From the IMG/VR virus record IMGVR_UViG_3300045988_019953, positions 1 through 42,581 of that record: a stretch of 42,581 bases of DNA. The stretch is one strand, 5' to 3'. Source of the DNA: a virus (lineage: Duplodnaviria; Heunggongvirae; Uroviricota; Caudoviricetes). Position 1 is the stretch's first letter. Each line of letters opens with the position of its first letter. The translations under genes were made by a program, and so were the position numbers. The notes under the pieces were generated by a model, which was given only the letters and a program-made list of their open reading frames with translations, did not search any database and was not told the DNA's origin. Shown one piece after another: positions 996 to 42,581 of the stretch.

Positions 996-1058
996 ACTAT
1001 AATAGCTAACTATTCATGATGTCAATGGGCTTTTCTAAAATAATTAATATGGTACTAT
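996..1058. promoter_or_regulatory. Divergent promoter region: leftward TTGACA-18-TATAGT and rightward -10 TACTAT, with dyad AATAG-N4-CTATT at 1001-1014
   Basis: Hexamers read in sequence; sits between divergent gene starts at 963 (minus) and 1090 (plus). Confidence 0.5.
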
Positions 1059-1089
1059 TCACATATCGACTAACTAAGGAGTAATTGAC

Positions 1090-3623: not shown

Positions 3624-4073
3624 TTATTCGGCGTTTGGTACTGCAAGAGCATACACGCCATCCAGCACCTTAATCAACAAACCTTTTTTACAAAGTCCAC
3701 GCATGGCGGTACAGACAGCACCAAGATTAGTGACATCCTCTTTTACCAAGGCATATACCGCACTAGGCGTAAAACGTTGCCCTTGCTGTTCAAGACACTT
3801 CCCATAGACTAGTTTTTGTAACTCCGTGAGCCTGCCTTTCTCAGGCAAAGGAACCGATATAACATCAAAAGGTTTTCCACCTTTAACCCAATACCGATAT
3901 TTACTCCCATCATAAACACGGTCTACTTCCCCTAAATAACCCAATAAGGTAACCGTCGCGCTAATCGGCCCGTCGAGTTCTATTGCCGATTTAATGTCAT
4001 GTAGTGACGCTCCCGGGCTCTCGGCTAATATCAGATTTAACGATTTCAGAAACTCGTCTAAGTATTTATGCAT
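3624..4073 (-). CDS. Hypothetical protein, possible C-terminal winged-helix
   Basis: 149-aa ORF; start overlaps the stop of the upstream small ORF (ATGCATAA). Confidence 0.5.
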   Translation of the reverse strand: MHKYLDEFLKSLNLILAESPGASLHDIKSAIELDGPISATVTLLGYLGEVDRVYDGSKYRYWVKGGKPFDVISVPLPEKGRLTELQKLVYGKCLEQQGQRFTPSAVYALVKEDVTNLGAVCTAMRGLCKKGLLIKVLDGVYALAVPNAE

Positions 4074-4209
4074 TCTTTTTAGCCTCTCTTAACTGTTTAC
4101 GGTAGGCATTGAAGCATTCACGGCAATAACTGCGTGTGCCTTTTCTGTCATATCGTTTAAGGAACGCACCCTCTTCTTTTTCTTTCCTACACATCTGGCA
4201 AATCTTCAT
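4066..4209 (-). CDS. Small zinc-ribbon protein (47 aa, CxxC...CxxC; below track threshold)
   Basis: ATG at 4207-4209 with GAGGAG 8 nt upstream; two CxxC pairs (CQMC, CREC); stop overlaps next gene start. Confidence 0.5.
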   Translation of the reverse strand: MKICQMCRKEKEEGAFLKRYDRKGTRSYCRECFNAYRKQLREAKKNA

Positions 4210-4227
4210 CTAAATACTCCTCGGTTG

Positions 4228-4256
4228 TTGAAGTACCCAAGATAATGGTACTTCAA
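4228..4256. promoter_or_regulatory. Perfect 10-bp inverted repeat TTGAAGTACC-N9-GGTACTTCAA (candidate operator)
   Basis: Arms at 4228-4237 and 4247-4256 are exact reverse complements; just upstream of the minus-strand replication operon. Confidence 0.5.
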
Positions 4257-4304: not shown

Positions 4305-4333
4305 TTGACTTTTCACTAAAAATGTGCTAAGCT
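4305..4333 (+). promoter_or_regulatory. Sigma70-like promoter TTGACT-17-TAAGCT driving conserved element copy A
   Basis: -35 at 4305-4310, -10 at 4328-4333; 28 of 29 positions identical to promoter at 15639-15667. Confidence 0.55.
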
Positions 4334-4339
4334 CCACCT

Positions 4340-4560
4340 GAGCTTGTGAAGTATGAACAAGCGACCGTGTCACGGCAGGAAACGGAGCGGGGCGTTAGCC
4401 CTGAGTGTAGTTTCGCTGACGCGTCCGGAAGGCCACTGGTCTATTGCAAAAATCCCCTAAGTTACATAAGTAACTAATTTTCCTTAAGTTTCTTAATGTG
4501 CTGTAGATTCGCAACCGTAAAAATGTAACGATTATTGGGCAGGCTTAAAGCCTGCCCTTT
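4340..4560 (+). ncRNA. Candidate structured small RNA, copy A
   Basis: Promoter-to-terminator unit with no ORF; about 115-nt core conserved with copy B, with two compensatory stem substitutions. Confidence 0.35.
4537..4560 (+). terminator. Rho-independent terminator (GGGCAGGCT-TAA-AGCCTGCCC plus TTT)
   Basis: 9-bp GC-rich stem followed by a short T tract. Confidence 0.55.
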
Positions 4561-4630
4561 AGTTACCAAGTAATAAGAATCTACGGCACAACCCAACCTG
4601 AAGAATCACAACGGCAACGTAACTAATCTC

Positions 4631-4659
4631 TTGCACACCCCAATATAATAGGATACTAT
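4631..4659 (+). promoter_or_regulatory. Early promoter TTGCAC-17-TACTAT with dyad AATAG-N4-CTATT (4647-4660)
   Basis: Hexamers with 17-bp spacer; 23-mer nearly identical to those at 15540 and 24940; conserved leader TCACTTATCGAAACGAG. Confidence 0.55.
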
Positions 4660-4693
4660 TCACTTATCGAAACGAGACTGAGGAGTGAGGGTT

Positions 4694-4876
4694 ATGTTTA
4701 AGAAGGGTCAGTTGGTGAAAACAAAGCGCAGCCGGCAACACGTAATAGTTACCAAAGACGAGGATGAATATGGTGTTGTCGCCGTATTTAGCCTTATACG
4801 GAAGAAACGTGGTTATGTTCATCACAATAATTTACAGCTTATCGGCAACAATTTTAAATTCAAAGGGGCGAAGTGA
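4694..4876 (+). CDS. Hypothetical early protein (60 aa)
   Basis: ATG 4694 after AGGAG; track ORF begins at upstream GTG 4685; stop overlaps next start (TGATG). Confidence 0.5.
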   Translation: MFKKGQLVKTKRSRQHVIVTKDEDEYGVVAVFSLIRKKRGYVHHNNLQLIGNNFKFKGAK

Positions 4877-5166
4877 TGGGAGAATTACCTCAATGTGAAC
4901 GCCAGTTCATTAGCTGGTTTATCCCTGTAAATAATTTCAACATTTCTGATTTGCTGGAACTAAGAGAAAAAGGTGCTCTGTGGGTGTGTAACGCCCGAGA
5001 CGTAACAAAGGCCAGGGTATGGAATTTTAGCCTACTGCGTCGCCCTAATAAGTCAGGGGCGGGTGCGGTAACGATGGACTTGTTACATCGCAAAGGTAAG
5101 TTGTTTATGAGAACGGCATCGAATCATGATGCCCGTGCCGACGACTCTGAGGGAGGTTGCCGTTAA
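4876..5166 (+). CDS. Hypothetical protein, paralog A of 15272-15517
   Basis: About 80 percent identical by eye to the minus-strand ORF at 15272-15517; translationally coupled to the upstream gene. Confidence 0.6.
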   Translation: MGELPQCERQFISWFIPVNNFNISDLLELREKGALWVCNARDVTKARVWNFSLLRRPNKSGAGAVTMDLLHRKGKLFMRTASNHDARADDSEGGCR

Positions 5167-5312
5167 TGAGAATTCGTATAACTGATGTTGATTATGTGGA
5201 CCCGCGCGATGGCGACGATTTGTCGCTTAGTTACTGGGGAGTCGCCCTTGGTGATGTGTTTGAGGTTTCCAGGGCCGGTTCCGATATGTTCATTATTGAA
5301 TGTGACGCCTGA
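5166..5312 (+). CDS. Small hypothetical protein (48 aa)
   Basis: ATG overlaps upstream stop (TAATG); below track threshold. Confidence 0.4.
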   Translation: MRIRITDVDYVDPRDGDDLSLSYWGVALGDVFEVSRAGSDMFIIECDA

Positions 5313-5360
5313 TATGTGGTTGTACACTCCTGTGAATGTGAGGTTCTGGAGGACTAAGTT

Positions 5361-5504
5361 ATGAGAGAAGCATTTGAGCGTTGGGCCATCGTCGAGGGTC
5401 TGCCGGTTTACAAGGGTTCGAAGAAAGAGTACCTGAACGTTAAGACCCGTCTCGCGTGGCGGGCGTGGAAAGCTGGTGTGCGAACTGCGATGAATATGGG
5501 GTGA
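5361..5504 (+). CDS. Small hypothetical protein (47 aa)
   Basis: ATG at 5361 preceded by GGAGGA; below track threshold. Confidence 0.4.
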   Translation: MREAFERWAIVEGLPVYKGSKKEYLNVKTRLAWRAWKAGVRTAMNMG

Positions 5505-5507
5505 GAT

Positions 5508-5711
5508 ATGAGTAAGTGGGTTAAGTGTAGTGAGCGGATGTCGGGGCTAGGTCAACCAGTTTTGGTCGTCAGTAGTATGGGTGGCGTGGTCCAGAACAAT
5601 GTGTACGAGTGGGATGGGGTAACTTGGTGTGATTTCCGTGCGGACTACGGGGAACACGCGCAGGAAGTGTTTTCTCACTGGATGCCGTTACCAGAGCCGC
5701 CGGAAGTGTGA
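5508..5711 (+). CDS. DUF551-like small protein
   Basis: 67 aa; C-terminal HWMPLPEPP resembles the DUF551 signature common in phage early regions (from memory). Confidence 0.45.
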   Translation: MSKWVKCSERMSGLGQPVLVVSSMGGVVQNNVYEWDGVTWCDFRADYGEHAQEVFSHWMPLPEPPEV

Positions 5712-5858: not shown

Positions 5859-5887
5859 TTGCACACTAAGATAGAATAGGCTACTAT
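5859..5887 (+). promoter_or_regulatory. Early promoter TTGCAC-17-TACTAT with dyad AATAG-N4-CTATT (5875-5888)
   Basis: Same architecture as 4631-4659; followed by RBS GAGGAGAG and ATG at 5919. Confidence 0.5.
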
Positions 5888-5918
5888 TCATTTACACGAA
5901 CAAGAGGAGAGACAGAAG

Positions 5919-7360: not shown

Positions 7361-7625
7361 ATTATTCTGGTTCGGCGGTATGCTGGCAATCGGAGGCACA
7401 TCGCTGTTTAATGTGTATCACCCCGGCGTGGACGACGGTCTATTTGGCCGGGTGCTCTATATCCTGACCACTATCGTCTGTGCCGCCGGGTGTATCCACC
7501 TGTTACAGGGCAGCATGTCACCGACGCTGCCGGAGACATTAATCGCATTAGTTGCGCTGCGACAGATTCGTCAGGCGTGGCTGTCATACGGAGGACATAA
7601 GCGTGTCTCGAAACATTTCAGATAA
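7353..7625 (+). CDS. Second small membrane protein (holin/antiholin-like)
   Basis: ATG 7353 after GAGGAGG, overlapping upstream stop; two hydrophobic segments; track lists a longer 7272 start. Confidence 0.45.
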   Translation: MNELFWFGGMLAIGGTSLFNVYHPGVDDGLFGRVLYILTTIVCAAGCIHLLQGSMSPTLPETLIALVALRQIRQAWLSYGGHKRVSKHFR

Positions 7626-8106
7626 TGGATTGCATTTTACCGCCGCGTTTGAGGGATTCCGCGGAACTGCATACAAAGCAACAAAGAACGAAAAATACTG
7701 GACTATAGGCTGGGGTCATACCGGGCCGGATGTGTATGAAGGACAGAAGATTACTGAGGGTCAGGGGCTACTGTTGCTGAACCGTGATATGCGGTGGGCT
7801 GTGAAAGCAGTCGACGAGGTAGCACACCCCTCACTGACCCAAGCCCAGTTTGATGCCGTTGTCGACCTGGTGTTCAACGCAGGACCCGGCGTTATCGCGG
7901 CCAACACCGGAACCGGTAAGGCACTACGGCAGGGAGACATCTCCACCTTACGGCATAAGTTGAGCCAGTTCATCAACCAACGCAACCCGAAAACGGGCAA
8001 ACTCGAGCCTGTTCTCGGCCTGCGTCGCCGGACCGCCGGGCGTCTGGCGCTGTTCGACGGTAAACCGTGGCAAGAGGCTGAGGCTATCGGGAGGGCTGTT
8101 AAATGA
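7603..8106 (+). CDS. Endolysin, lysozyme-like (GH24-type) muramidase
   Basis: Motif EGFRGTAYKATKNEKYWTIGWGHTG; likely GTG start 7603 after GGAGGA rather than track ATG 7552. Confidence 0.8.
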   Translation: MSRNISDNGLHFTAAFEGFRGTAYKATKNEKYWTIGWGHTGPDVYEGQKITEGQGLLLLNRDMRWAVKAVDEVAHPSLTQAQFDAVVDLVFNAGPGVIAANTGTGKALRQGDISTLRHKLSQFINQRNPKTGKLEPVLGLRRRTAGRLALFDGKPWQEAEAIGRAVK

Positions 8107-8291: not shown

Positions 8292-8313
8292 ATCTATTTT
8301 CTGTAATGACTAG

Positions 8314-8342
8314 TTGACTATTACCATTGACCCTATTATATT
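8314..8342 (+). promoter_or_regulatory. Promoter TTGACT-17-TATATT with leader similar to other early promoters
   Basis: Hexamers read in sequence; leader CCATCGACAACGAG resembles TTATCGAAACGAG. Confidence 0.4.
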
Positions 8343-10356: not shown

Positions 10357-10386
10357 TGTACATCCCGCCCAATCACCTTATATAAT
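10357..10386 (+). promoter_or_regulatory. Candidate promoter for packaging/structural operon (perfect -10 TATAAT at 10381-10386)
   Basis: TATAAT read in sequence; -35 weak (TGTACA at 18-bp spacing); sits just before terS. Confidence 0.4.
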
Positions 10387-10997: not shown

Positions 10998-12244
10998 GTA
11001 TTCAGCTATCCGCGCCACAGGCTTTGTTCCTGAATTGTGACAATAAATACAAAGCATACGTCGGCGGCTTCGGAAGCGGCAAAACATTTGTCGGCTGTCT
11101 CGACCTGCTTACGTTTATGCTTAAGCACCCCGGTACGCGCCTGGGCTACTTCGGCCCGACATACCCGGCCATACGCGACATCTTCTACCCGACATTCGAG
11201 GAAGCGGCTAACCTGCTTGGCCTTGATGTGCTGGTTAAATCCGGCGACAAAGAGGTTGTGGTTACTCGCGGTAAGACGGTGCTCGGAACTGTTATCTGCC
11301 GTTCGATGGATAACCCCGGTTCGATAGTCGGCTTCAAAATCGCGGCTGCGGTAGTGGATGAACTGGACGTATTGAGCCGCGAGAAAGCTGAGCTGGCGTG
11401 GAACAAAATTGTGGCCCGTATGCGTCTGGTTATACCTGGCGTAACTAACCACATCTCTGTCACCACGACACCGGAAGGATTCAAGTTCGTCTACGCCAAG
11501 TTCAAAGAGAACCCGACGCCGAGTTACTCAATGGTGCAGGCTTCTACACACGAGAACGCGCGATTCCTGCCGCCGGATTACATTAGCTCGCTTACAGAGA
11601 CTTACCCGGCGCAACTGATTAACGCATATCTGAACGGTGAGTTCGTCAACCTTACCTCCGGCAGCGTGTATTACGCGTACGACCGCCGTAAGCACCGCAG
11701 CAAAGAGACAATTCATCCGGGCGACACGCTGTACATCGGGCAGGACTTCAACGTTACGAAGAACGCCAGCGCTGTGTACGTGCAGCGTAAAGACGGCTGG
11801 CACGCGGTTGCTGAACTGAAGGGCCTGTTCGATACGCCAGACACCGTGCGTGTAATTACTGAGAAGTGGAAATCGCAGGGCCACCGCATCGTCGTTTACC
11901 CCGATGCCAGCGGCAAGAACCGCAAAACCAACTCAGCATCAATCTCTGATATCGCATTACTCCAGCAGGCCGGGTTCGACGTTCGCGCTAAATCCGCCAA
12001 CCCCCCAGTTAAAGACCGTGTTTTAGCGGTGAATACCGCGCTGGAAAAAGGTAAGCTGTGGGTTAATGACCACTTATGCCCTGAGATAGCCAAGACGCTG
12101 GAGCAGCAGGCATACGATGATAACGGGGAGCCCGCTAAAGATGGCATCATTGACCATATGGCGGATGCTCTCGGCTATCCTGTAGTTTACGAGATGCCGG
12201 TGGTTAAACCAGTAATCAACATCCCGGTGACTTTCGCACTTTAA
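10994..12244 (+). CDS. terL: Terminase large subunit (ATPase plus nuclease)
   Basis: Walker A GGFGSGKT and Walker B-like AAVVDELD; acidic residues in C-terminal region; followed by portal. Confidence 0.85.
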   Translation: MSIQLSAPQALFLNCDNKYKAYVGGFGSGKTFVGCLDLLTFMLKHPGTRLGYFGPTYPAIRDIFYPTFEEAANLLGLDVLVKSGDKEVVVTRGKTVLGTVICRSMDNPGSIVGFKIAAAVVDELDVLSREKAELAWNKIVARMRLVIPGVTNHISVTTTPEGFKFVYAKFKENPTPSYSMVQASTHENARFLPPDYISSLTETYPAQLINAYLNGEFVNLTSGSVYYAYDRRKHRSKETIHPGDTLYIGQDFNVTKNASAVYVQRKDGWHAVAELKGLFDTPDTVRVITEKWKSQGHRIVVYPDASGKNRKTNSASISDIALLQQAGFDVRAKSANPPVKDRVLAVNTALEKGKLWVNDHLCPEIAKTLEQQAYDDNGEPAKDGIIDHMADALGYPVVYEMPVVKPVINIPVTFAL

Positions 12245-12256
12245 GAGGATTATTCA

Positions 12257-13732
12257 ATGTTAACTATGAACGGTCAGAATCAGGGTGTTAAGACAAAACA
12301 CCGAGAATGGCTGCATCACTTCAATAAATGGCAGAAAGTGCGTCACGCGCTGGAAGGCGACCTTATTCGCTATCTCCACGACGTAGGGAAGAACGAGCCT
12401 GACCCTACCTATGCAGCACAGCGCCAGGAAGAATACGAGAACGGAGCTATCTGCTACAACTTCACCAAGCGAACGCTGGCGGGGATGGTCGGCAGTGTCA
12501 TGCGCAAAGACCCTGAACAGATTATCCCGCCTGAACTTGAGTACCTGTTACGTAATGCCGACGGTTCCGGTGTCGGGCTGTGGCAGCACGCGCAGGATAC
12601 GCTAATGGAGATTGACTCAGTGGGCCGTGGTGGGTTGCTGGTTGATGCCCCGGAGACAGCTGCGGCAACGGCAGCCGAACAGAACGCGGGATTATTAAAC
12701 CCGGTCATCGCATTCTACACTGCGGAAAACATTATCAACTGGCGACTTACCCGCGTCGGTTCAGTTAACCGCGTGACTATGGTTGTGTTGCGTGAGGTAT
12801 GGGAGTACTCAGAACCGGGCGCAGAGTTCGAAACTAAGTTTGGTGAACAATACCGCGTTCTCGATTTGATTGACGGGCGTTACCGCCATCGAATATATCG
12901 CTTCGATGCCGAAGGTGGCGCTCAGGATGAAGTAATCGAAATATTCCCGGAACTTGGTGAACAGTTGCACGGTAGAATCCCATTCACGTTTATTGGTGCA
13001 AGCAACAACGACGCCACCATCGACGATGCGCCTTTGCTGCCGTTAGCTGAGCTTAATATTGGGCACTTCCGTAACAGCGCAGACAATGAGGAGTCCAGCT
13101 TCGTTGCGGGCCAGCCCACTCTGTTCATCGCCCCGGGCGAGAACATGAGTATGGAACAGTGGAAAGAGGCCAACCCTCACGGTGTCCGCATGGGGTCGCG
13201 TTCTGGCCATAACATCGGTTACGGCGGCAATGCGTTTCTGGTTCAGGCAGGAGCGAACAACCTTGCCAAACAGAATATGCTGGATAAAGAGAACCAGGCA
13301 ATCCAGATTGGTGCACAGCTTATCACCCCTACCCAGCAAATCACCGCTGAATCGGCCCGCTTGCAACGCGGCGCTGACACATCAGTTATGGCAACAATCG
13401 CACGTAACGTAAGCATGGCGTACACCGATGCGTTGCGCTGGGCGGCTGCGATGCTAGGGTTGCGCGAAGACACAGAGATTGAATTCAAGCTGAATATGGA
13501 GTTCTTCCTGCAACCGATGACCGCCCAGGACCGTGCTCAGTGGATGGCCGATATTAACGCGGGCCTGTTACCGGCTACTGCCTACTACGCGGCATTGCGC
13601 AAGGCTGGGGTGACTGACTGGACCGACGAGGACATTCAGAACGCTATCGAGGATGCGCCTCTGCCGTTGGCTACACAGACTACCGGGGAGATTCCGTCTA
13701 CAGCGCAGCAGGATGAAGAGGCGAAGCAATGA
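12257..13732 (+). CDS. Portal protein
   Basis: 491 aa immediately after terL with acidic C-terminus; assignment by size and synteny. Confidence 0.7.
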   Translation: MLTMNGQNQGVKTKHREWLHHFNKWQKVRHALEGDLIRYLHDVGKNEPDPTYAAQRQEEYENGAICYNFTKRTLAGMVGSVMRKDPEQIIPPELEYLLRNADGSGVGLWQHAQDTLMEIDSVGRGGLLVDAPETAAATAAEQNAGLLNPVIAFYTAENIINWRLTRVGSVNRVTMVVLREVWEYSEPGAEFETKFGEQYRVLDLIDGRYRHRIYRFDAEGGAQDEVIEIFPELGEQLHGRIPFTFIGASNNDATIDDAPLLPLAELNIGHFRNSADNEESSFVAGQPTLFIAPGENMSMEQWKEANPHGVRMGSRSGHNIGYGGNAFLVQAGANNLAKQNMLDKENQAIQIGAQLITPTQQITAESARLQRGADTSVMATIARNVSMAYTDALRWAAAMLGLREDTEIEFKLNMEFFLQPMTAQDRAQWMADINAGLLPATAYYAALRKAGVTDWTDEDIQNAIEDAPLPLATQTTGEIPSTAQQDEEAKQ

Positions 13733-15246: not shown

Positions 15247-15272
15247 AAAGGCCCCTTTCGGGGCCTTAGTTT
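15247..15272. terminator. Bidirectional rho-independent terminator (AAGGCCCC-TTTC-GGGGCCTT)
   Basis: 8-bp GC stem with A/T-rich flanks on both sides; between convergent genes. Confidence 0.65.
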
Positions 15273-15517
15273 TATCGCACTCTCATAAATAGCTTACCTT
15301 TGCGCTGTAACAAATCCATGCCAACAGCACCTTCACCAGATTTGTTCGGGCGGCGCATTAAACTAAAGTTCCATACTCTAGCTTTTGAAGCATCTTTCGC
15401 GTTGCACACCCAAAGTCTACCGCTTTCTCTTAGGTCAAATAAGTCCGATATACTGAAATTATTAACTGGTATGAATCCGCTAATGAACTCACGTTCACAA
15501 CTAGGTAATTCTTGCAT
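15272..15517 (-). CDS. Hypothetical protein, paralog B of 4876-5166
   Basis: 81 aa; ATG 15515-15517 with GGAGGG RBS; about 80 percent identical by eye to paralog A. Confidence 0.6.
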   Translation of the reverse strand: MQELPSCEREFISGFIPVNNFSISDLFDLRESGRLWVCNAKDASKARVWNFSLMRRPNKSGEGAVGMDLLQRKGKLFMRVR

Positions 15518-15543
15518 ACACCCTCCTCGTTTCGATGTAATGA

Positions 15544-15572
15544 ATAGTACCCTATTATATTGGTGTCTGCAA
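15544..15572 (-). promoter_or_regulatory. Early-type promoter on minus strand (TTGCAG-17-TACTAT) with dyad AATAG-N4-CTATT (15543-15556)
   Basis: 23-mer identical to 24940-24962 and a 1-mismatch reverse complement of 4639-4661; leader matches early promoter leaders. Confidence 0.55.
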
Positions 15573-15638: not shown

Positions 15639-15667
15639 TTGACTTTTCACTAAAAATATGCTAAGCT
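15639..15667 (+). promoter_or_regulatory. Sigma70-like promoter TTGACT-17-TAAGCT driving conserved element copy B
   Basis: 28 of 29 positions identical to promoter at 4305-4333. Confidence 0.55.
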
Positions 15668-15673
15668 CCACCT

Positions 15674-15870
15674 GAGCTTGTGAAGTATGAACAAGCGACC
15701 GCGGCGCGGGCAGGTAACGGAGCGGGACGTAAGTCCTGAGTGTAGTTACGCTGACGCGTTCGGAAGGGCCATACTCTATTGCTTGTGTAAAAAGTAACTG
15801 ATTTACTGAGATTGCGCCGTTTCTATGTTTAAATGATAAGGACTAGCGCCCCGCTTTACGGCGGGGCTTT
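15674..15870 (+). ncRNA. Candidate structured small RNA, copy B
   Basis: Conserved core shared with 4340-4450, bounded by promoter and terminator; no ORF. Confidence 0.35.
15848..15870 (+). terminator. Rho-independent terminator (GCCCCGC-TTTACG-GCGGGGC plus TTT)
   Basis: 7-bp GC stem followed by a short T tract; ends copy B just before the Rz-like gene. Confidence 0.5.
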
Positions 15871-22772: not shown

Positions 22773-23003
22773 TTACTCATCAATATTGCTTCGGTATTCC
22801 CGTAACTTCTCCAGACTTTCAATTGCTTCCGCTAAGTCGGTTCCTGTGTCCTTGTGCCCCCGCAAGCCCATACATAATAGCTTCTTCAATGCGTGCTGTA
22901 GCGCCGGGTCCCGGATATCGAAGGCGCGTAGCACATCGTAAACGTCTACAGTCATAGTGCTGCCGTGAGTGTTTGTCATTGTGCGGTTGTATTTTGAAGT
23001 CAT
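22773..23003 (-). CDS. Hypothetical protein (76 aa), last gene of the minus-strand island
   Basis: Track ORF downstream of the island HNH gene. Confidence 0.5.
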   Translation of the reverse strand: MTSKYNRTMTNTHGSTMTVDVYDVLRAFDIRDPALQHALKKLLCMGLRGHKDTGTDLAEAIESLEKLREYRSNIDE

Positions 23004-23012
23004 CTCTAAGCC

Positions 23013-23513
23013 CTATTTATAACCGTTGTTGAATGTTGTCAGCCCGTGGTTTATGTGGAATTTATTGGCTACGGACATGTAAATTCTTTCCGCGAAAGCG
23101 TCCTCTATTCTGTCAAATGTTTTACTAATCTGCTTACCGTTGACAACGGCATACGCTCTCCACTTAGTTTCTCCTTTCCGCGCCACGCCAGTAACTCCAG
23201 ATGTATTATCTTTGCGCCTTTTCACGTTAACCATGTTGTCCCTTCTTGATTTGCAGGACAGGTTTTCAATTCTGTCATCACATGTATCATGGTTAGTGTG
23301 GTCTATGACAAATCCTTTTGGAATCTTGCCGGAGAACATCTCGTACACCACCCTCGACCTTTTAAACTTACGGTTGCCGAACATGACGTACCAATAGCCG
23401 TTTTTACACAAACTCCCGGCAACATCCCCTACATTCACATCGTTACGGCGACATGATTTGACTTTCCAGTATAGGACGCCGTTTTTGTAGCTAAAAACCT
23501 CACTCCAGTCCAT
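23013..23513 (-). CDS. HNH homing endonuclease (HNH plus AP2-like region), copy 1 of 4
   Basis: Motif GFVIDHTNHDTCDDRIENL...NMVNVKRRKDNTSGVTGV shared with ORFs at 34358, 36269, 39992. Confidence 0.8.
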   Translation of the reverse strand: MDWSEVFSYKNGVLYWKVKSCRRNDVNVGDVAGSLCKNGYWYVMFGNRKFKRSRVVYEMFSGKIPKGFVIDHTNHDTCDDRIENLSCKSRRDNMVNVKRRKDNTSGVTGVARKGETKWRAYAVVNGKQISKTFDRIEDAFAERIYMSVANKFHINHGLTTFNNGYK

Positions 23514-24913: not shown

Positions 24914-24943
24914 TTTAAACCCCTTCATTGTTGGTGTAAGTGA

Positions 24944-34855: not shown

Positions 34856-36276
34856 TTTTTACCTCTGCGCTTCATGTACTCTAGTAATATGTCTTGTACT
34901 TGCTTTTTCTCGTCGGTACGAGCCGCAACTACCTCATCTAACGTATCTTTAGCAATAATCTTGTAGATAAAAACAGGGCGATTATACCCCGATTGCTTTT
35001 GACGCGTTGGACCTATACGCTCGACAACCTGCAAATAGTGCTCGAGGTTCCAGCCTTGCGAAATAAACGCCAGATGATGGCCGCCGTCCTGTAAATTCAA
35101 ACCATGACCGGCTGACGCAGGGTGAACGCACAAAATCTCGATTTCGCCACGGTTCCACGCCTCCATCTGCTTATTGCCCTTGGCGCCTTTGGCAAACGCC
35201 TGTGCTTGCGGGAATCGCTTAAGGATACGCTCCAGTTCGTGCTTGAACTGATAGGCCACCAGTAACGGCGCGCCCTGTAACTCCTCAACAATTGACTCAA
35301 GAGCATCCAGCTTCGTGTCATGCACTTTCTCCCAGTCTTTGGTTGCTTCGCCGTCTGGCCCCGATACATACACGGCACCGGATGCAATCTGCAAACACTT
35401 CGACGTCTTCGCCGCAGCGTTAGCCGCTTCAACTTCCCCGCTTTCCAGTTCCGCGAATAACTTCTCCTCCATATCGATGTACGTCTGACGCGCTTTCTTC
35501 GGCAGGTCGATTTCAACCGGTACGATAACGGGCGCTTCACAACCGAACCACTCAGCGGCATCAATCGTGAGACTAATGTCCTTCATCTTCTGGTGGATTT
35601 CATTATCTGCGCCAGGGCGTGCGTGATATTCGCGCGCCATAGCAGATTTTCCTTTCTGCACCGAGTTAAACCAGCGGTCGGTGAACGCTGTGTACGAAGA
35701 ACCGAGTCGCTCGCCCGCGTCGATAAACCAGTTCTGCCCCCACAAGTCCTTGAGGCCGTTTGGCGACGGTGTACCGGTCAGGTTGATGAAACGCTTAACC
35801 TTACCGAACGCCACTTTACTAAGCGCCTTTGCCCTCTTGCTGCCTCCCGAACGGCTACGGAATGACTTGAGCTTCGTGCTCTCATCGGCAACGATAGCCG
35901 TAAAAGGCCAGTCGTCTTTGCCGTAGTAGTCAATGAGCCACTCGATAACTTCGTAGTTGGTACACACCACGTTAGCGTCTGACTCCAGCGCCGAGATACG
36001 GCGCTTCTCCGAACCTGTTGCATCTACGACACTCAAACAAGGGAACCGCCATTTCTCTTGTTCAGATGGCCACGTGCCAGATGCAACGCGCAACGGGGCG
36101 AGGATTAACACGCGGTCCTCTTCCGTAAGCTGTCCGTTGCGAAACAGGCGGTTTAAAGTCCACAGGACGCTACCAGTCTTCCCGGCGCCCATGCTCGCCC
36201 AAATATTACAGCGATGATGTCGCAACATGAACGAGGTCATGAGCTTCTGGTACTCGCGCCTTTGAAACTTACTCAT
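34852..36276 (-). CDS. Superfamily 2 DEAD/DEAH-type DNA helicase
   Basis: Walker A SMGAGKTG, DEST box (IVADESTK), C-terminal helicase-type region. Confidence 0.8.
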   Translation of the reverse strand: MSKFQRREYQKLMTSFMLRHHRCNIWASMGAGKTGSVLWTLNRLFRNGQLTEEDRVLILAPLRVASGTWPSEQEKWRFPCLSVVDATGSEKRRISALESDANVVCTNYEVIEWLIDYYGKDDWPFTAIVADESTKLKSFRSRSGGSKRAKALSKVAFGKVKRFINLTGTPSPNGLKDLWGQNWFIDAGERLGSSYTAFTDRWFNSVQKGKSAMAREYHARPGADNEIHQKMKDISLTIDAAEWFGCEAPVIVPVEIDLPKKARQTYIDMEEKLFAELESGEVEAANAAAKTSKCLQIASGAVYVSGPDGEATKDWEKVHDTKLDALESIVEELQGAPLLVAYQFKHELERILKRFPQAQAFAKGAKGNKQMEAWNRGEIEILCVHPASAGHGLNLQDGGHHLAFISQGWNLEHYLQVVERIGPTRQKQSGYNRPVFIYKIIAKDTLDEVVAARTDEKKQVQDILLEYMKRRGKK

Positions 36277-36763
36277 TGGGTCGTATTCCTTTGTCTAATG
36301 TTTCAAGTGCCGATACCCTGGCGGCTATTGCTTCTTCTCTTGTAGAGTAATAACCTAAATGCTTCTTTATTCCGTCAATAGTCATATACGCGGCCCATTT
36401 GTTATGCGACTCTCGCCACCTGACGCCAGGAAAGCCGCTTTTATTACTCGACCTAATTTTCTGCCATCCAGCTTTTGCGACGTTACCTTGTTGTGTCACT
36501 AACTGTAGATTTTCCAATCGGTTATCATCGTACACGCCATTTATGTGGTCAATTTGCATTCCTTCTGGAATCTTGCCGTTGTGCATCTCCCAGACTATTC
36601 TATGTGCTTGGTATATTTTACCTTTGAACTTAATACGCCTATGCCCCTTGTTTACCGAGCTTCCTGCTGTACTGCCTACCGATACTCTCGGCCTCGGTCT
36701 TACTCGCCAAATGAGGGCGCCGTTGTCGTAGGTGAATATCCTACCCCATGCTATTTCACACAT
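36269..36763 (-). CDS. HNH homing endonuclease, copy 3 of 4
   Basis: Motif MQIDHINGVYDDNRLENL plus KSGFPGVRW; RBS AAGGA. Confidence 0.8.
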   Translation of the reverse strand: MCEIAWGRIFTYDNGALIWRVRPRPRVSVGSTAGSSVNKGHRRIKFKGKIYQAHRIVWEMHNGKIPEGMQIDHINGVYDDNRLENLQLVTQQGNVAKAGWQKIRSSNKSGFPGVRWRESHNKWAAYMTIDGIKKHLGYYSTREEAIAARVSALETLDKGIRPNE

Positions 36764-36972: not shown

Positions 36973-37272
36973 CTAACTATAATAGTTCGCTATTAGGTCG
37001 TCAACCTGTTTGAAAGACCCGACGACAAAAACATTTGCACCGCGTCTACGCATCCGCTCATGCTCACGTAACTGGTGCGGGTCTGGCTTCGTGTTTTCGT
37101 CTTTCTTAACCTCGACGAACCAGATGATGCCGCCGGGGAGAATTACCAGCAGGTCAGGGGCTCCCACTCTGTTTTCATATGACAATTTGCGTACGAGGCC
37201 CCCAAGGGCCTCGAATCGCTCTTTTGCGTATTTCTGTATTTTTCCTTCCGGGGTCATGGGCGCAGAATCCAA
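36973..37272 (-). CDS. VRR-NUC domain nuclease
   Basis: Motifs GAPDLLVILPGG and IWFVEVKKDE match the VRR-NUC pattern; probable TTG start after AGGTGGGG. Confidence 0.65.
   Translation of the reverse strand: MDSAPMTPEGKIQKYAKERFEALGGLVRKLSYENRVGAPDLLVILPGGIIWFVEVKKDENTKPDPHQLREHERMRRRGANVFVVGSFKQVDDLIANYYS
36976..37004 (-). promoter_or_regulatory. Leftward promoter TTGACG-17-TATAGT with dyad AATAG-N4-CTATT (36981-36994)
   Basis: Same architecture and spacer core as leftward promoters at 996-1025 and 41215-41243. Confidence 0.5.
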
Positions 37273-37811: not shown

Positions 37812-39999
37812 AACGTTTTAACTCCTGACCTTCTGCTACAAGAGGGAACCCCTCAGCCCATTCCGGTAATTCGCACATCAACCGCTCAAGTTCAGCCACC
37901 GTGTAATCCGCCGTGTCTGGAGTTTCACATACCAGTTCATCGTGTACCGAAAGCACGATGGGGTACCCGCCACCCTCAACATTAATCATCGCATATGCTA
38001 GTAAATCACGGCACAGTGCCTGGACCAGGTTTTCACAGGCTTTGCCGCCGTGTGTGTACAGGGTGGTCCATTGACGGGTTAACGGGTGTTCGCCTTGATA
38101 CTTTATTCGCACATTCGTGTTCACCCGTCCGTCTTCGTCTGTTTCCTTTGTCACACTAACGCCGATTCCCGGATACGAGAGGATACGGCCTGACGGCAAC
38201 TCCATACACAACCACCAACCTGGAACCTTCCTACCGGATGAATCAAATTCTACAGTACGCCATATGCGGATAGCCCTTTCCCCGTTCCTGCGCAAGTGTG
38301 CCCCTGCCCAAAATTCACGACCAGGATTACGCACAGCGGCTAAAATTCCATCTTTAAGGTCACGCCAGAACGCTACTGTTTCGGGGTGTGACTCGCGCCA
38401 CATACGCTTGATAGCATCACAAGTACGCCACACTTTCTTATCGAGGATATACGATGGTCGGTCATCCTTTTCACCCGGATGCGGCGGTCGCTTTGCTTCC
38501 TGGATACGCGCCCACTCATAGCCACGTGCGGTAGCAGCCCATATGTGGTCGGGGAATGTACCGTCCATTGTTTTTGCCATCTCAATAAGGTCGAGGCCTA
38601 AGTTTTTAGCGAACGTAACGAACGCTCCGACACCCCCCTCATAGCCGAGGCCAAGCTCGCAAGCCTTGCCTATCTGTCTGATTTCCTTGAAGTTTTTCTT
38701 AATGTCATTGGGGTCCATGCCGAACATCTTGCCTGCGGTTACGCAGTAAATATCCAGTCCGGCGCGGAACGTATCAAGCGCGGTTTCTTCGCCCGCCAGC
38801 CACGCTAAACCACGGCCTTCTACGTTAGAGTAATCGGCGACGACAAACTTATGCCCGGCTTCCGGGATAATGCAGCTACGGACCGTCGATGCCGTCAGCT
38901 TGGCTACATCAAAACGGCGATGCGCGCGGCCCTTAAGTAACGCTGAAATGCCTTTATCCAGTTCATCATCGTGATAGTAACCGCGCGCCAGGTTCTGCGG
39001 CTGGAAGCCTTTACCGGCCCATCGCAGAGTTCGTTTTGCCCCGCCGTACTGCAAGCAACCGCGACGGCGGTCGTCCGACGAGCGACCTAACAGAAGCGGG
39101 TTATATTTCGTTGACGCGGTAGACGCTGCCCCGAGTCGCATCTCGATAATCGTGCGGGCGTCGTCAGGTAAATCATCATCCGCCAACAGGTCGTTAAGCG
39201 TAGACTTCTGCGCGTTGTGGATGCGGTGCGCTGGCGCAAGTTCACGCAGAATCGGCAGAAAATCCTTACCAGTAAGCGAGCCGCCGTATTTGCGTTGGGC
39301 TTCTTCCTGTAACTGGGCCTTGTGATTCTCCACGGCTTCAATCGCGGCTTCCGCTAGTGCGACGTCAACCTTAAACCCGCGGTCGTTGATTAACTGGTCC
39401 AGTTCCAGTACACGGTCCTCGAACTCGGAGTTACCCCAACGCGGCAGCTTATGGAAGACTTCACGCATCGCAGTGATGTCGCTCACAGCGTACTTGATGA
39501 ACAGCGCCCACTCGTCCGGGTGCGTTTCGGCGGTGTAGCGGCGAATTTTGTAGTTCTTCGGTGTCGGTTTAGAGAAACGCTTAATCAGCGCCTTGCCGCG
39601 TTTATCTTTCGCGTTGTCCGCAGATACGCCCAGCACTTCACACAGCGCATCAAGCGAACCAGGCAGCGCGTGACGAAACGCCCAAATCATAGTATCAATA
39701 GTGTTACTTACCGGAATATCAAAACCCCAGCAGTGCTTCATGATGAGTCTGTCGAACATTAAAAAGTTATGGCCCACGATTTTCATACGTCCACGCATAA
39801 CATTACGGAGAGCCACACGGAGGCTTATCGGCATTACTGATTCGGAAGTGCAATCCCATACTTCTACAGGACCGTCATCAACAGCATACGTACAAATTAT
39901 GACCTCTGTCGTTGGGTGCTCCGCATACGCATACGACCCGACTTTCTTTAAGTCTGCTTCGGAGAATGTCTCGGTATCCAGGTACAATAAACTAGTCAT
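37801..39999 (-). CDS. DNA polymerase, family A, with N-terminal 3-5 exonuclease domain
   Basis: Exo motif LYLDTET; pol motif A DYSNVEGR; motif C SVHDELV; RBS AAGGA; 732 aa. Confidence 0.9.
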   Translation of the reverse strand: MTSLLYLDTETFSEADLKKVGSYAYAEHPTTEVIICTYAVDDGPVEVWDCTSESVMPISLRVALRNVMRGRMKIVGHNFLMFDRLIMKHCWGFDIPVSNTIDTMIWAFRHALPGSLDALCEVLGVSADNAKDKRGKALIKRFSKPTPKNYKIRRYTAETHPDEWALFIKYAVSDITAMREVFHKLPRWGNSEFEDRVLELDQLINDRGFKVDVALAEAAIEAVENHKAQLQEEAQRKYGGSLTGKDFLPILRELAPAHRIHNAQKSTLNDLLADDDLPDDARTIIEMRLGAASTASTKYNPLLLGRSSDDRRRGCLQYGGAKRTLRWAGKGFQPQNLARGYYHDDELDKGISALLKGRAHRRFDVAKLTASTVRSCIIPEAGHKFVVADYSNVEGRGLAWLAGEETALDTFRAGLDIYCVTAGKMFGMDPNDIKKNFKEIRQIGKACELGLGYEGGVGAFVTFAKNLGLDLIEMAKTMDGTFPDHIWAATARGYEWARIQEAKRPPHPGEKDDRPSYILDKKVWRTCDAIKRMWRESHPETVAFWRDLKDGILAAVRNPGREFWAGAHLRRNGERAIRIWRTVEFDSSGRKVPGWWLCMELPSGRILSYPGIGVSVTKETDEDGRVNTNVRIKYQGEHPLTRQWTTLYTHGGKACENLVQALCRDLLAYAMINVEGGGYPIVLSVHDELVCETPDTADYTVAELERLMCELPEWAEGFPLVAEGQELKRYAK

Positions 40000-40465
40000 G
40001 GCAATAAAATTCCTTATGCAGTTTTTCTCTTAATTTCTTTACAGCGCTTTCCGCTTCTTCAAGAGTTCCGTAGCTACCAGCGTTATAACTTTTGTAGTTA
40101 AAATGTACACGCCCATAAAATCGGTTGCCGTTTTTAACTACTCCCTTAACCCCCGTTCTAGCTCCCTTATTTTTAGCGTTTCGCACATTATCCGCTGTGG
40201 TTGCTTTCCTTAGGTTAGAAATCCTATTGTCTAACCTGTCACGGTTTATATGGTCAAGAGGCCCCTCAGGCCATTCGCCGTAGTCGAAAAACCAAGCAAG
40301 CCTGTGGGCCATATAGTATCTACCCATATAAGGTATGCGCCAGTATCCGCTACTATTAATACATCCCGCAATGTCTCCGGGTTTCCCTCGTCTGTATGTA
40401 GGTTGTATCCATGTGAATATTCCGGTTTCTCGGTTATAGCTAAGAAAATCTTTTATATGTTCCAT
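39992..40465 (-). CDS. HNH homing endonuclease, copy 4 of 4
   Basis: Motif LDHINRDRLDNRISNL plus ARTGVKGV; ATG 40463-40465 after GGAG preferred over track TTG 40489. Confidence 0.8.
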   Translation of the reverse strand: MEHIKDFLSYNRETGIFTWIQPTYRRGKPGDIAGCINSSGYWRIPYMGRYYMAHRLAWFFDYGEWPEGPLDHINRDRLDNRISNLRKATTADNVRNAKNKGARTGVKGVVKNGNRFYGRVHFNYKSYNAGSYGTLEEAESAVKKLREKLHKEFYCHD

Positions 40466-40476
40466 TCTGACTCCGG

Positions 40477-40500
40477 TAAAAAGGCCCAATGAAGGGCCTT
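40477..40500 (-). terminator. Terminator-like hairpin AAGGCCC-AATGAA-GGGCCTT with T tract on minus strand
   Basis: 7-bp stem; TTTT follows on minus strand; between SSB-like gene and HNH/polymerase. Confidence 0.5.
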
Positions 40501-41214: not shown

Positions 41215-41243
41215 ACTATAATAGCTTGCTATTCAGGTGTCAA
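41215..41243 (-). promoter_or_regulatory. Leftward promoter TTGACA-17-TATAGT with dyad AATAG-N4-CTATT (41220-41233)
   Basis: Hexamers and dyad read in sequence; between exonuclease stop and SSB-like start. Confidence 0.5.
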
Positions 41244-42504: not shown

Positions 42505-42581
42505 TGGTCAATTAAATGCCGAGTTTTATGTTCGCAGTGCATAGCCCACCCATACATCGACTCGAAGACATAAAAGTCTGG
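42505..42581. repeat. Terminal direct repeat, right copy (identical to 1-77)
   Basis: Exact 77/77 identity with window start. Confidence 0.9.

Follow-up and report, generated by a model that had tools for sequence, protein, structure and literature searches.

Phage 434 Cro and related HTH proteins bind palindromic operators as dimers. The operators of phage 434 are 14-bp dyads (ACAA-N6-TTGT), in which the outer bases are conserved and the centre is variable, and these dyads are bound by dimers of Cro or of the repressor. Another arrangement, found in temperate phages, is that of the P1 C1 repressor and of mycobacteriophage L5 gp71 with its 'stoperators', in which one small repressor acts at many scattered sites and controls most non-late transcription. 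These sites are asymmetric and the repressors maintain lysogeny. The L5 sites are located inside transcribed regions in one orientation. The controller (C) proteins of R-M systems are small HTH_3 dimers, and their C-boxes are palindromes that overlap the promoter of their own gene, which is autoregulated.

The DNA stretch analyzed here (the window, 42,581 nucleotides) is the complete circularly permuted genome of a lytic E. coli phage, a Kagunavirus-like siphophage of the subfamily Guernseyvirinae. Bases 1-77 are repeated exactly at 42505-42581. This 77-nt end repeat is an assembly overlap, and the genome is 42,504 bp long. The window is ~89% identical to Shigella phage phiSD1 and to many E. 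coli phages, and more than 450 related records are matched in the phage collection. Members of the Guernseyvirinae (Jersey-, K1G- and SP-031-like) belong to the most often isolated phages of Salmonella and E. coli, and their use in biocontrol, in therapy and as a chassis for synthetic biology is proposed. Pfam detects neither a cI-like domain nor an integrase domain in the scanned ORFs, and no prophage copy is found in 5,426 complete E. coli genomes. Lysogeny genes are also absent from the genome descriptions published for relatives, including those for fBC-Eco01 (PMC9825357) and VB_EcoS-Golestan (PMC7203180). No known RNA family is matched by an Rfam scan of the whole window. Serratia phage eta, for which 'unstable lysogens' are described, was rejected as a regulatory comparison, because it shares the structural module only. 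The replication and island operons of the window contain four inserted HNH_3 homing-endonuclease genes (22773-23513, 34358-34855, 36269-36763 and 39992-40489), of which two have AP2 domains.

The window contains a repeated 14-bp dyad, AATAG-N4-CTATT, and a gene for a 71-aa HTH_3 protein (1090-1305). This combination resembles the 434 Cro/cI system in the size and family of the protein and in the 14-bp dyad with conserved outer bases and variable centre. The predicted operators overlap sigma-70 promoters, and two of them are located beside the regulator gene, the putatively weaker one on its own promoter, as in phage 434. In contrast, no cI partner, integrase or lysogeny module is reported or seen in the scanned ORFs, single sites are scattered over eight promoters around the whole genome instead of being grouped in tripartite OL/OR clusters, and the half-site is AATAG instead of ACAA. 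The small candidate repressor and the scattering of its sites over a phage genome recall P1 C1 and L5 gp71, but the sites are perfect symmetric dyads on core promoters and the phages are described as strictly lytic. The C proteins of R-M systems are similar in protein family, palindrome and position of the palindrome on the own promoter, but R-M genes are absent here, the sequence of the operator is another one, and the regulon would comprise many operons.

The repeat itself is already published under another label. Seven 'phage RNAP promoters', PP1-PP7, were predicted for fBC-Eco01 by PHIRE, with the consensus tgAATAGTa-ccTATTat-T, and these represent the same sequence element as the dyad, e.g. 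TGAATAGTACCCTATTATAT (PMC9825357). Seven PHIRE promoters are also reported for VB_EcoS-Golestan (PMC7203180). In the accessible parts of both papers, these sites are read as directional promoters for a phage RNAP, and there is no mention of the palindrome, the overlap with sigma-70 hexamers or a link to an HTH protein (PMC9825357, PMC7203180). The papers on LPSent1 and BASEL contain no promoter analysis. The one RNA-seq study of a Kagunavirus, K1B4, has a time course of 5-120 min that is too coarse here, with no mapping of transcription start sites (TSS) or promoters; its gene numbering cannot be tied to ORFs, and its supplement covers host genes only (PMC12645636). An operator proposal for the repeat is found in none of the papers searched.

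Copies of the dyad and the predicted promoters that carry them

The first-pass annotation had listed seven exact copies of the dyad and estimated that far fewer than one is expected by chance. Both points are borne out. Exact AATAG-N4-CTATT (AATAGNNNNCTATT) is present at 1001, 4647, 5875, 15543, 24943, 36981 and 41220, as compared with a mean of 0.02 copies in 100 dinucleotide shuffles, none of which reaches seven. The copy with one mismatch that had been proposed at 1046-1059 is confirmed as AATATGGTACTATT, and two more one-mismatch dyads, absent from the earlier list, are located at 8309 and 15634. When every 5-mer arm is enumerated with its reverse complement at spacers of 0-8, without any bias toward this motif, AATAG-N4-CTATT ranks first in the window with its seven copies; the runners-up are GC-rich terminator stems with 3-4 copies. 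The same dyad is at the top of this enumeration in Kagunavirus genomes and at the top or joint top in Jerseyvirus genomes. The near-identical 23-mer noted at three sites is also real: TGAATAGTACCCTATTATATTGG is found exactly at 15541 and 24941, and with one mismatch at 4640 on the minus strand.

All eight dyads (the seven exact copies and that at 1046) are located 26-74 nt upstream of an SD sequence and start codon in the correct orientation. Every copy had been placed at a predicted promoter, and the sequence agrees with this, because all eight lie on sigma-70-like candidate promoters of the form TTGACA/TTGCAC-17/18-TATAGT/TACTAT. These promoters are of two designs. In class A, TTGCAC-N10-AATAGGnTACTATTCA, the spacer is 17 bp, the −10 hexamer TACTAT is inside the right arm, and the dyad covers about −19 to −6. 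In class B, TTGACA-N4/5-AATAGnnnnCTATTATAGT, the dyad is in the spacer, its last T is in the −10 hexamer TATAGT, and it covers about −25 to −12. The dyads had all been described as overlapping the −10 region. This description is correct for the sites at 1046, 4647, 5875, 15543 and 24943, at which TACTAT is within the right arm, but not for those at 1001, 36981 and 41220, at which the dyad fills the spacer and only its last base is common to the −10 TATAGT. Over 23-32 nt, the copies of class A have nearly the same sequence, and duplication, rather than independent selection, may account for part of this similarity.

Two class A promoters with an exact dyad are directed rightward. The promoter at 4631-4660 (+) has its −35 TTGCAC at 4631-4636, its dyad at 4647-4660 and its −10 TACTAT at 4654-4659, and is predicted to drive the small rightward genes at 4685-5711. 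The promoter at 5859-5888 (+) has its −35 TTGCAC at 5859-5864, its dyad at 5875-5888 and its −10 TACTAT at 5882-5887, and is predicted to drive a rightward operon that reaches the lysozyme gene (7552-8106). The other two class A promoters with an exact dyad are on the minus strand and are each predicted to drive a minus-strand island inside the late region. That at 15543-15572 (−), with −35 TTGCAG at 15572-15567, dyad at 15556-15543 and −10 TACTAT at 15549-15544, precedes an 81-aa ORF (15517-15272). That at 24943-24972 (−), with −35 TTGCGC at 24972-24967, dyad at 24956-24943 and −10 TACTAT at 24949-24944, precedes a superinfection-immunity gene (24928-24722), an SbcD-like exonuclease gene and an HNH gene. 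The fifth member of class A, at 1046-1059 (+), is a candidate for a weakened operator on the HTH gene's own promoter. Its −10 TACTAT is at 1053-1058 and no good −35 is present. Through the mismatch (AATAT), this promoter gains a TGg extended −10 (1050-1052). The region hardly varies across 36 distinct Kagunavirus sequences.

The three class B promoters are all on the minus strand. The promoter at 996-1025 (−), with −35 TTGACA at 1025-1020, dyad at 1014-1001 and −10 TATAGT at 1001-996, is predicted to drive a 49-aa ORF (963-814), a 166-aa ORF (798-298) and leftward recombination/nuclease genes. The promoter at 36976-37004 (−), with −35 TTGACG at 37004-36999, dyad at 36994-36981 and −10 TATAGT at 36981-36976, is predicted to drive the operon of a 63-aa ORF and an SNF2 helicase. 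The promoter at 41215-41243 (−), with −35 TTGACA at 41243-41238, dyad at 41233-41220 and −10 TATAGT at 41220-41215, is predicted to drive the operon of an Enc34-type ssDNA-binding protein and DNA polymerase A.

The one-mismatch dyad at 8309-8322 (+), ACTAGTTGACTATT, contains the −35 TTGACT of a promoter at 8314-8342 that precedes the small-gene cluster before terS. This site keeps one mismatch in the relatives, as ACTAGTTGACTATT in 31 loci and as AATAGTTGACTAGT, the form found in Jerseyvirus Shelanagig, in 12 loci. It is a possible weak operator, perhaps a ninth site whose weakness is deliberate. The dyad is missing from the late promoter before terS (TGTACA-18-TATAAT, 10357-10386), as had been claimed, and also from the upstream region of the primase operon and from two sRNA-like promoters.

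Several further elements are located near these promoters. An inverted repeat with 8-bp arms, GAAGTACC-N9-GGTACTTC, is present at 4215-4245, directly upstream of the SD sequence of a 47-aa zinc-ribbon ORF (4066-4209, minus strand). This ORF heads the primase-helicase operon. No AATAG dyad is present there, and the operon may be under a control element of its own. Two sRNA-like paralogues, at 4305-4565 (+) and 15639-15870 (+), share an identical TTGACT-17-TAAGCT promoter, which is followed by ~155 nt at 85-94% identity, and have their own intrinsic terminators at 4537-4557 and 15848-15867. At least one of their stems shows a compensatory change (GGGGC...GCCC versus GGGAC...GTCC), and their RNA fold z-score is −3.0, with no Rfam match. 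Paralogous small proteins are encoded at 4873-5166 (+) (MGELPQCERQFISWFIPVNNF...) and 15272-15517 (−) (MQELPSCEREFISGFIPVNNF...), each downstream of a class A dyad promoter and beside an sRNA-like copy. Taken together, the small proteins and the sRNA-like copies resemble one module that has been duplicated and is arranged differently at the two places. A type I-E CRISPR spacer of E. coli 2017.09.02CC (NZ_AP025214.2, 4038667-4038699) exactly matches 33 nt of the window (1021-1053), between both dyads of the HTH divergent promoter region. This is the only hit among the 5,426 complete E. coli genomes.

The HTH protein and conservation of the dyad

The first-pass annotation had named a Cro/XRE-like protein encoded at 1090-1305 as the candidate binder, and the identity of this protein is confirmed. 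The 71-aa ORF matches Pfam HTH_3 at 1.1e-12, above the gathering score. Its best sequence match in the PDB is phage 434 Cro, which also consists of 71 aa (1.9e-6). The AlphaFold2 model (pLDDT 76.7) contains five helices, and its top Foldseek match is again 434 Cro (2cro; TM 0.72/0.78, 40% identity), followed by 434 repressor, HipB, SinR, the R-M controller proteins C.AhdI and C.BclI, and P22 c2. Sequence and predicted fold thus point to the same closest solved relative. Among Kagunavirus variants of 77-96% identity, helix 2 and helix 3 (the recognition helix) hardly vary, with one substitution in one sequence. The gene (+) forms a single-gene unit that ends in a bidirectional terminator (1294-1315), and it is associated with two dyads 45 bp apart. 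No other scanned ORF has an operator-type DNA-binding domain above the Pfam threshold; the remaining scanned DNA-binding ORFs encode HNH or HNH-AP2 homing endonucleases, a sub-threshold NinH-like protein and an ssDNA-binding protein.

Earlier pattern scans of viral contigs, in which the contigs with multiple hits are 40-45-kb relatives, are biased by the search patterns. They were therefore left out of the conservation statistics, and the loci were sampled anew with the HTH protein as the only anchor. From this sample, six orthologous promoters were aligned, and each alignment contains 30-48 distinct sequences; that of the 4647 site contains 48, Jerseyvirus included. The fraction of cells that differ from the window is 0.5% at the ten arm positions, as compared with 22.8% at the four central positions (N4) and 14.0% in the 40-nt flanks. 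The arm located in the spacer is as invariant as the −35 and −10 hexamers, and sigma-70 makes no base-specific contacts in the promoter spacer. In phiSD1, the arms are kept and N4 is changed. In Shelanagig (Jerseyvirus), the dyad is present at the orthologous promoters, while the flanks and the central bases are different.

The position of the dyad relative to the promoter also varies. Its centre is at about −12.5 relative to the start in class A and about −18.5 in class B. At the Shelanagig sie promoter, TTGCAT-N7-dyad with −10 TATTAT, the dyad is moved by 3 bp relative to the −10, with its centre at about −15.5, and this is a third register. The dyad thus occupies at least three registers relative to the −35 and −10 hexamers. 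These shifts indicate an element in its own right rather than a sigma element. The latter would not move in this way, whereas an operator lying over a promoter can. At the first rightward early promoter of Shelanagig (36440-36473), the dyad is within a perfect 34-bp palindrome, AACCTGTAATAATAG-TACT-CTATTATTACAGGTT, which is far longer than that at any other site.

A motif search in related phages had been suggested, and across three genera the dyad tracks the type of the HTH protein. In Kagunavirus, the HTH protein is 77-99% identical to that of the window, with the recognition helix GVSQGAINQLALG, and 35 of 35 HTH-anchored loci (≤20 kb) contain 2-6 exact dyads. In Jerseyvirus, it is ~50% identical, with the recognition helix GVSQSLITHLATG, and all 12 loci anchored in the same way (≤20 kb) contain 2-4 exact dyads. 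In Cornellvirus, it is 39-41% identical, with the recognition helix GVTQSAISHLCCG, and no AATAG-N4-CTATT is found in seven sequences, among them St162, VSiP and four IMG/VR contigs. St162 has instead TATTAG-N4-GTAWTA, in the same 16-bp frame as the dyad, at eight promoter or intergenic sites versus 0.2 expected, a motif that was derived post hoc, after inspection of the sequences. This motif is not found in Kagunavirus and is found at most once in Jerseyvirus. A stricter Cornellvirus motif, TATTAG-N4-CTAATA, was rejected, because only three sites are obtained at ≤1 mismatch and the looser motif fits better. The phage 'sidste' was likewise rejected as a natural swap of the HTH protein, since it is of the ordinary Jersey type.

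The recognition helices of Kagunavirus (SQGAINQ) and Jerseyvirus (SQSLITH) differ at several positions, and yet the core dyad is the same, so that the covariation of protein and DNA is not clean. The pattern among the genera fits co-divergence of the HTH protein and its putative site. It is supportive but not decisive, because the Cornellvirus motif is post hoc, the Cornellvirus contrast is confounded with phylogeny, and the Kagunavirus and Jerseyvirus helices differ. In Cornellvirus St162 (12690-12960) and VSiP (11130-11400), a G-rich non-coding stretch of ~270 nt, rich in GGGGGAGA repeats, follows the primase gene. The window contains no equivalent of this stretch, which might represent an origin or iteron region.

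Proposed mode of action and alternative explanations

It is quite likely that some protein reads the dyad, and this protein is probably the XRE protein. The dyad itself is probably the operator of a dimeric HTH repressor, for which the 434-Cro-like 71-aa protein (1090-1305) is the foremost candidate. Every computational test run, namely arm constraint, registers, HTH_3 fold, the weakened copy on the HTH gene's own promoter and genus match, favours a dimeric-repressor operator. From these sequence data we infer the XRE protein as the binder, repression as the effect of binding, and the timing. Host sigma-70 RNA polymerase would fire the near-consensus promoters after infection, and thereby transcribe the replication and recombination operons, two rightward early operons, two minus-strand islands of the late region and the repressor gene. 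As the repressor accumulates, one dimer would bind to each dyad, with one recognition helix for each arm and the half-site centres 9 bp apart. Because every dyad is located within −25 to −6, the bound protein would cover the −10/spacer region and exclude RNA polymerase, and the operons with a dyad would be damped or shut off. The repressor's own promoter would be repressed last by autoregulation, since its operator has one mismatch. The terS/late promoter, the primase-operon promoter and the two sRNA-like promoters would escape, because the dyad is absent from them.

The strong conservation of the arms requires a reader but does not name it. It is therefore conceivable, though unlikely, that another phage protein or a host regulator binds to the dyad, perhaps as an activator. 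The dyad is common to Kagunavirus and Jerseyvirus while the recognition helices of their XRE proteins differ, and other candidates exist: the NinH-like protein, the 47-aa zinc-ribbon ORF, a possible N-terminal HTH of the exonuclease (annotated in Shelanagig), and an excisionase-like HTH that is present in relatives. However, only the XRE protein has an above-threshold domain of the operator type among the scanned ORFs, and the dyads flank its gene and include its own promoter. Cornellvirus lacks the dyad despite the same Salmonella hosts and promoter layout as Jerseyvirus, which argues against a host factor, and no E. coli or Salmonella regulator is known to have an AATAG-N4-CTATT consensus. 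Sites centred at −12 to −19 on a promoter with a 17-bp spacer do not fit the known activator geometries either. Still less likely is that there is no dedicated binder and that the dyad simply comes with a conserved promoter cassette, whether a symmetric −10-like bidirectional promoter, a spacer that tunes sigma-70, or a cassette for module shuffling as in T4-type phages. One arm does provide the −10 TACTAT in class A, TATAAT-like hexamers are present on the opposite strand beside the dyad, and the class A copies, with their shared 23-32 nt, head islands that look mobile. However, the left arms of class A and class B are not read by sigma-70 and yet are conserved as well as the −35 and −10 hexamers, while N4 varies freely. 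Moreover, the same dyad has three different registers and belongs to two promoter designs with no other features in common, and the opposite direction has neither a −35 nor a consistent downstream gene.

The label given to the repeat in the PHIRE-based predictions for fBC-Eco01 (PMC9825357) and Golestan (PMC7203180) would make it a promoter for a phage-encoded RNA polymerase. This explanation is very improbable and is rejected, because it is contradicted by the gene content. The ORFs of at least 416 aa encode the primase-helicase, DNA polymerase A, SNF2 helicase, nuclease, terminase, portal and tail proteins, and none of them has an RNA polymerase or sigma domain. In addition, canonical sigma-70 hexamers flank every site at the correct spacing. 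At three sites the 20-mer points in the direction of the downstream gene, and at the other five in the opposite direction. A role as a DNA cruciform or RNA hairpin could be suggested by the perfect inverted repeat (5-bp arms, 4-nt loop), but has almost no likelihood and is rejected on energetics. The energies of single-strand folding are small (−0.9 to −1.9 kcal/mol; z-scores between −2.6 and +0.15), indicating that the dyads are not structural elements. The sites are also upstream of the predicted transcription starts, so that the dyads would not be contained in the RNA.

Consequences of the operator model and a possible carrier state

The best-supported model is that the repressor and its operators form a conventional Cro-type circuit in a lytic phage, which would not be mechanistically surprising. 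With the operator reading, a regulatory model that can be tested takes the place of the unsupported annotation as 'phage RNA polymerase promoters', and a map of promoters and putative operators becomes available for engineering. This reading singles out one small gene, the removal or overexpression of which should reprogramme most early and middle transcription. The three genera also form a natural series for the study of co-divergence between HTH proteins and operators.

The same set of repressor and operators, the latter on eight predicted promoters of non-structural operons, could, in a reading that we consider improbable, hold the genomes of 'strictly lytic' therapy candidates in a quiescent episomal carrier state and/or give homo-immunity against relatives that superinfect. 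If so, the operators of Kagunavirus/Jerseyvirus and those of Cornellvirus would represent immunity types, as in lambdoid phages. A hint at a carrier state is a Kagunavirus-like circular genome that was deposited as a 'plasmid'. This record, pC16EC0033-2 (CP088689.1), is circular, 44,086 bp long and non-mobilizable, and is derived from an E. coli blood isolate. Its genes for the HTH protein, DUF2800 and the RepA-helicase are ~94% identical to those of the window. Its size and gene content suggest that it is a whole Kagunavirus genome, and the record could represent either a carrier state or a contamination of the culture.
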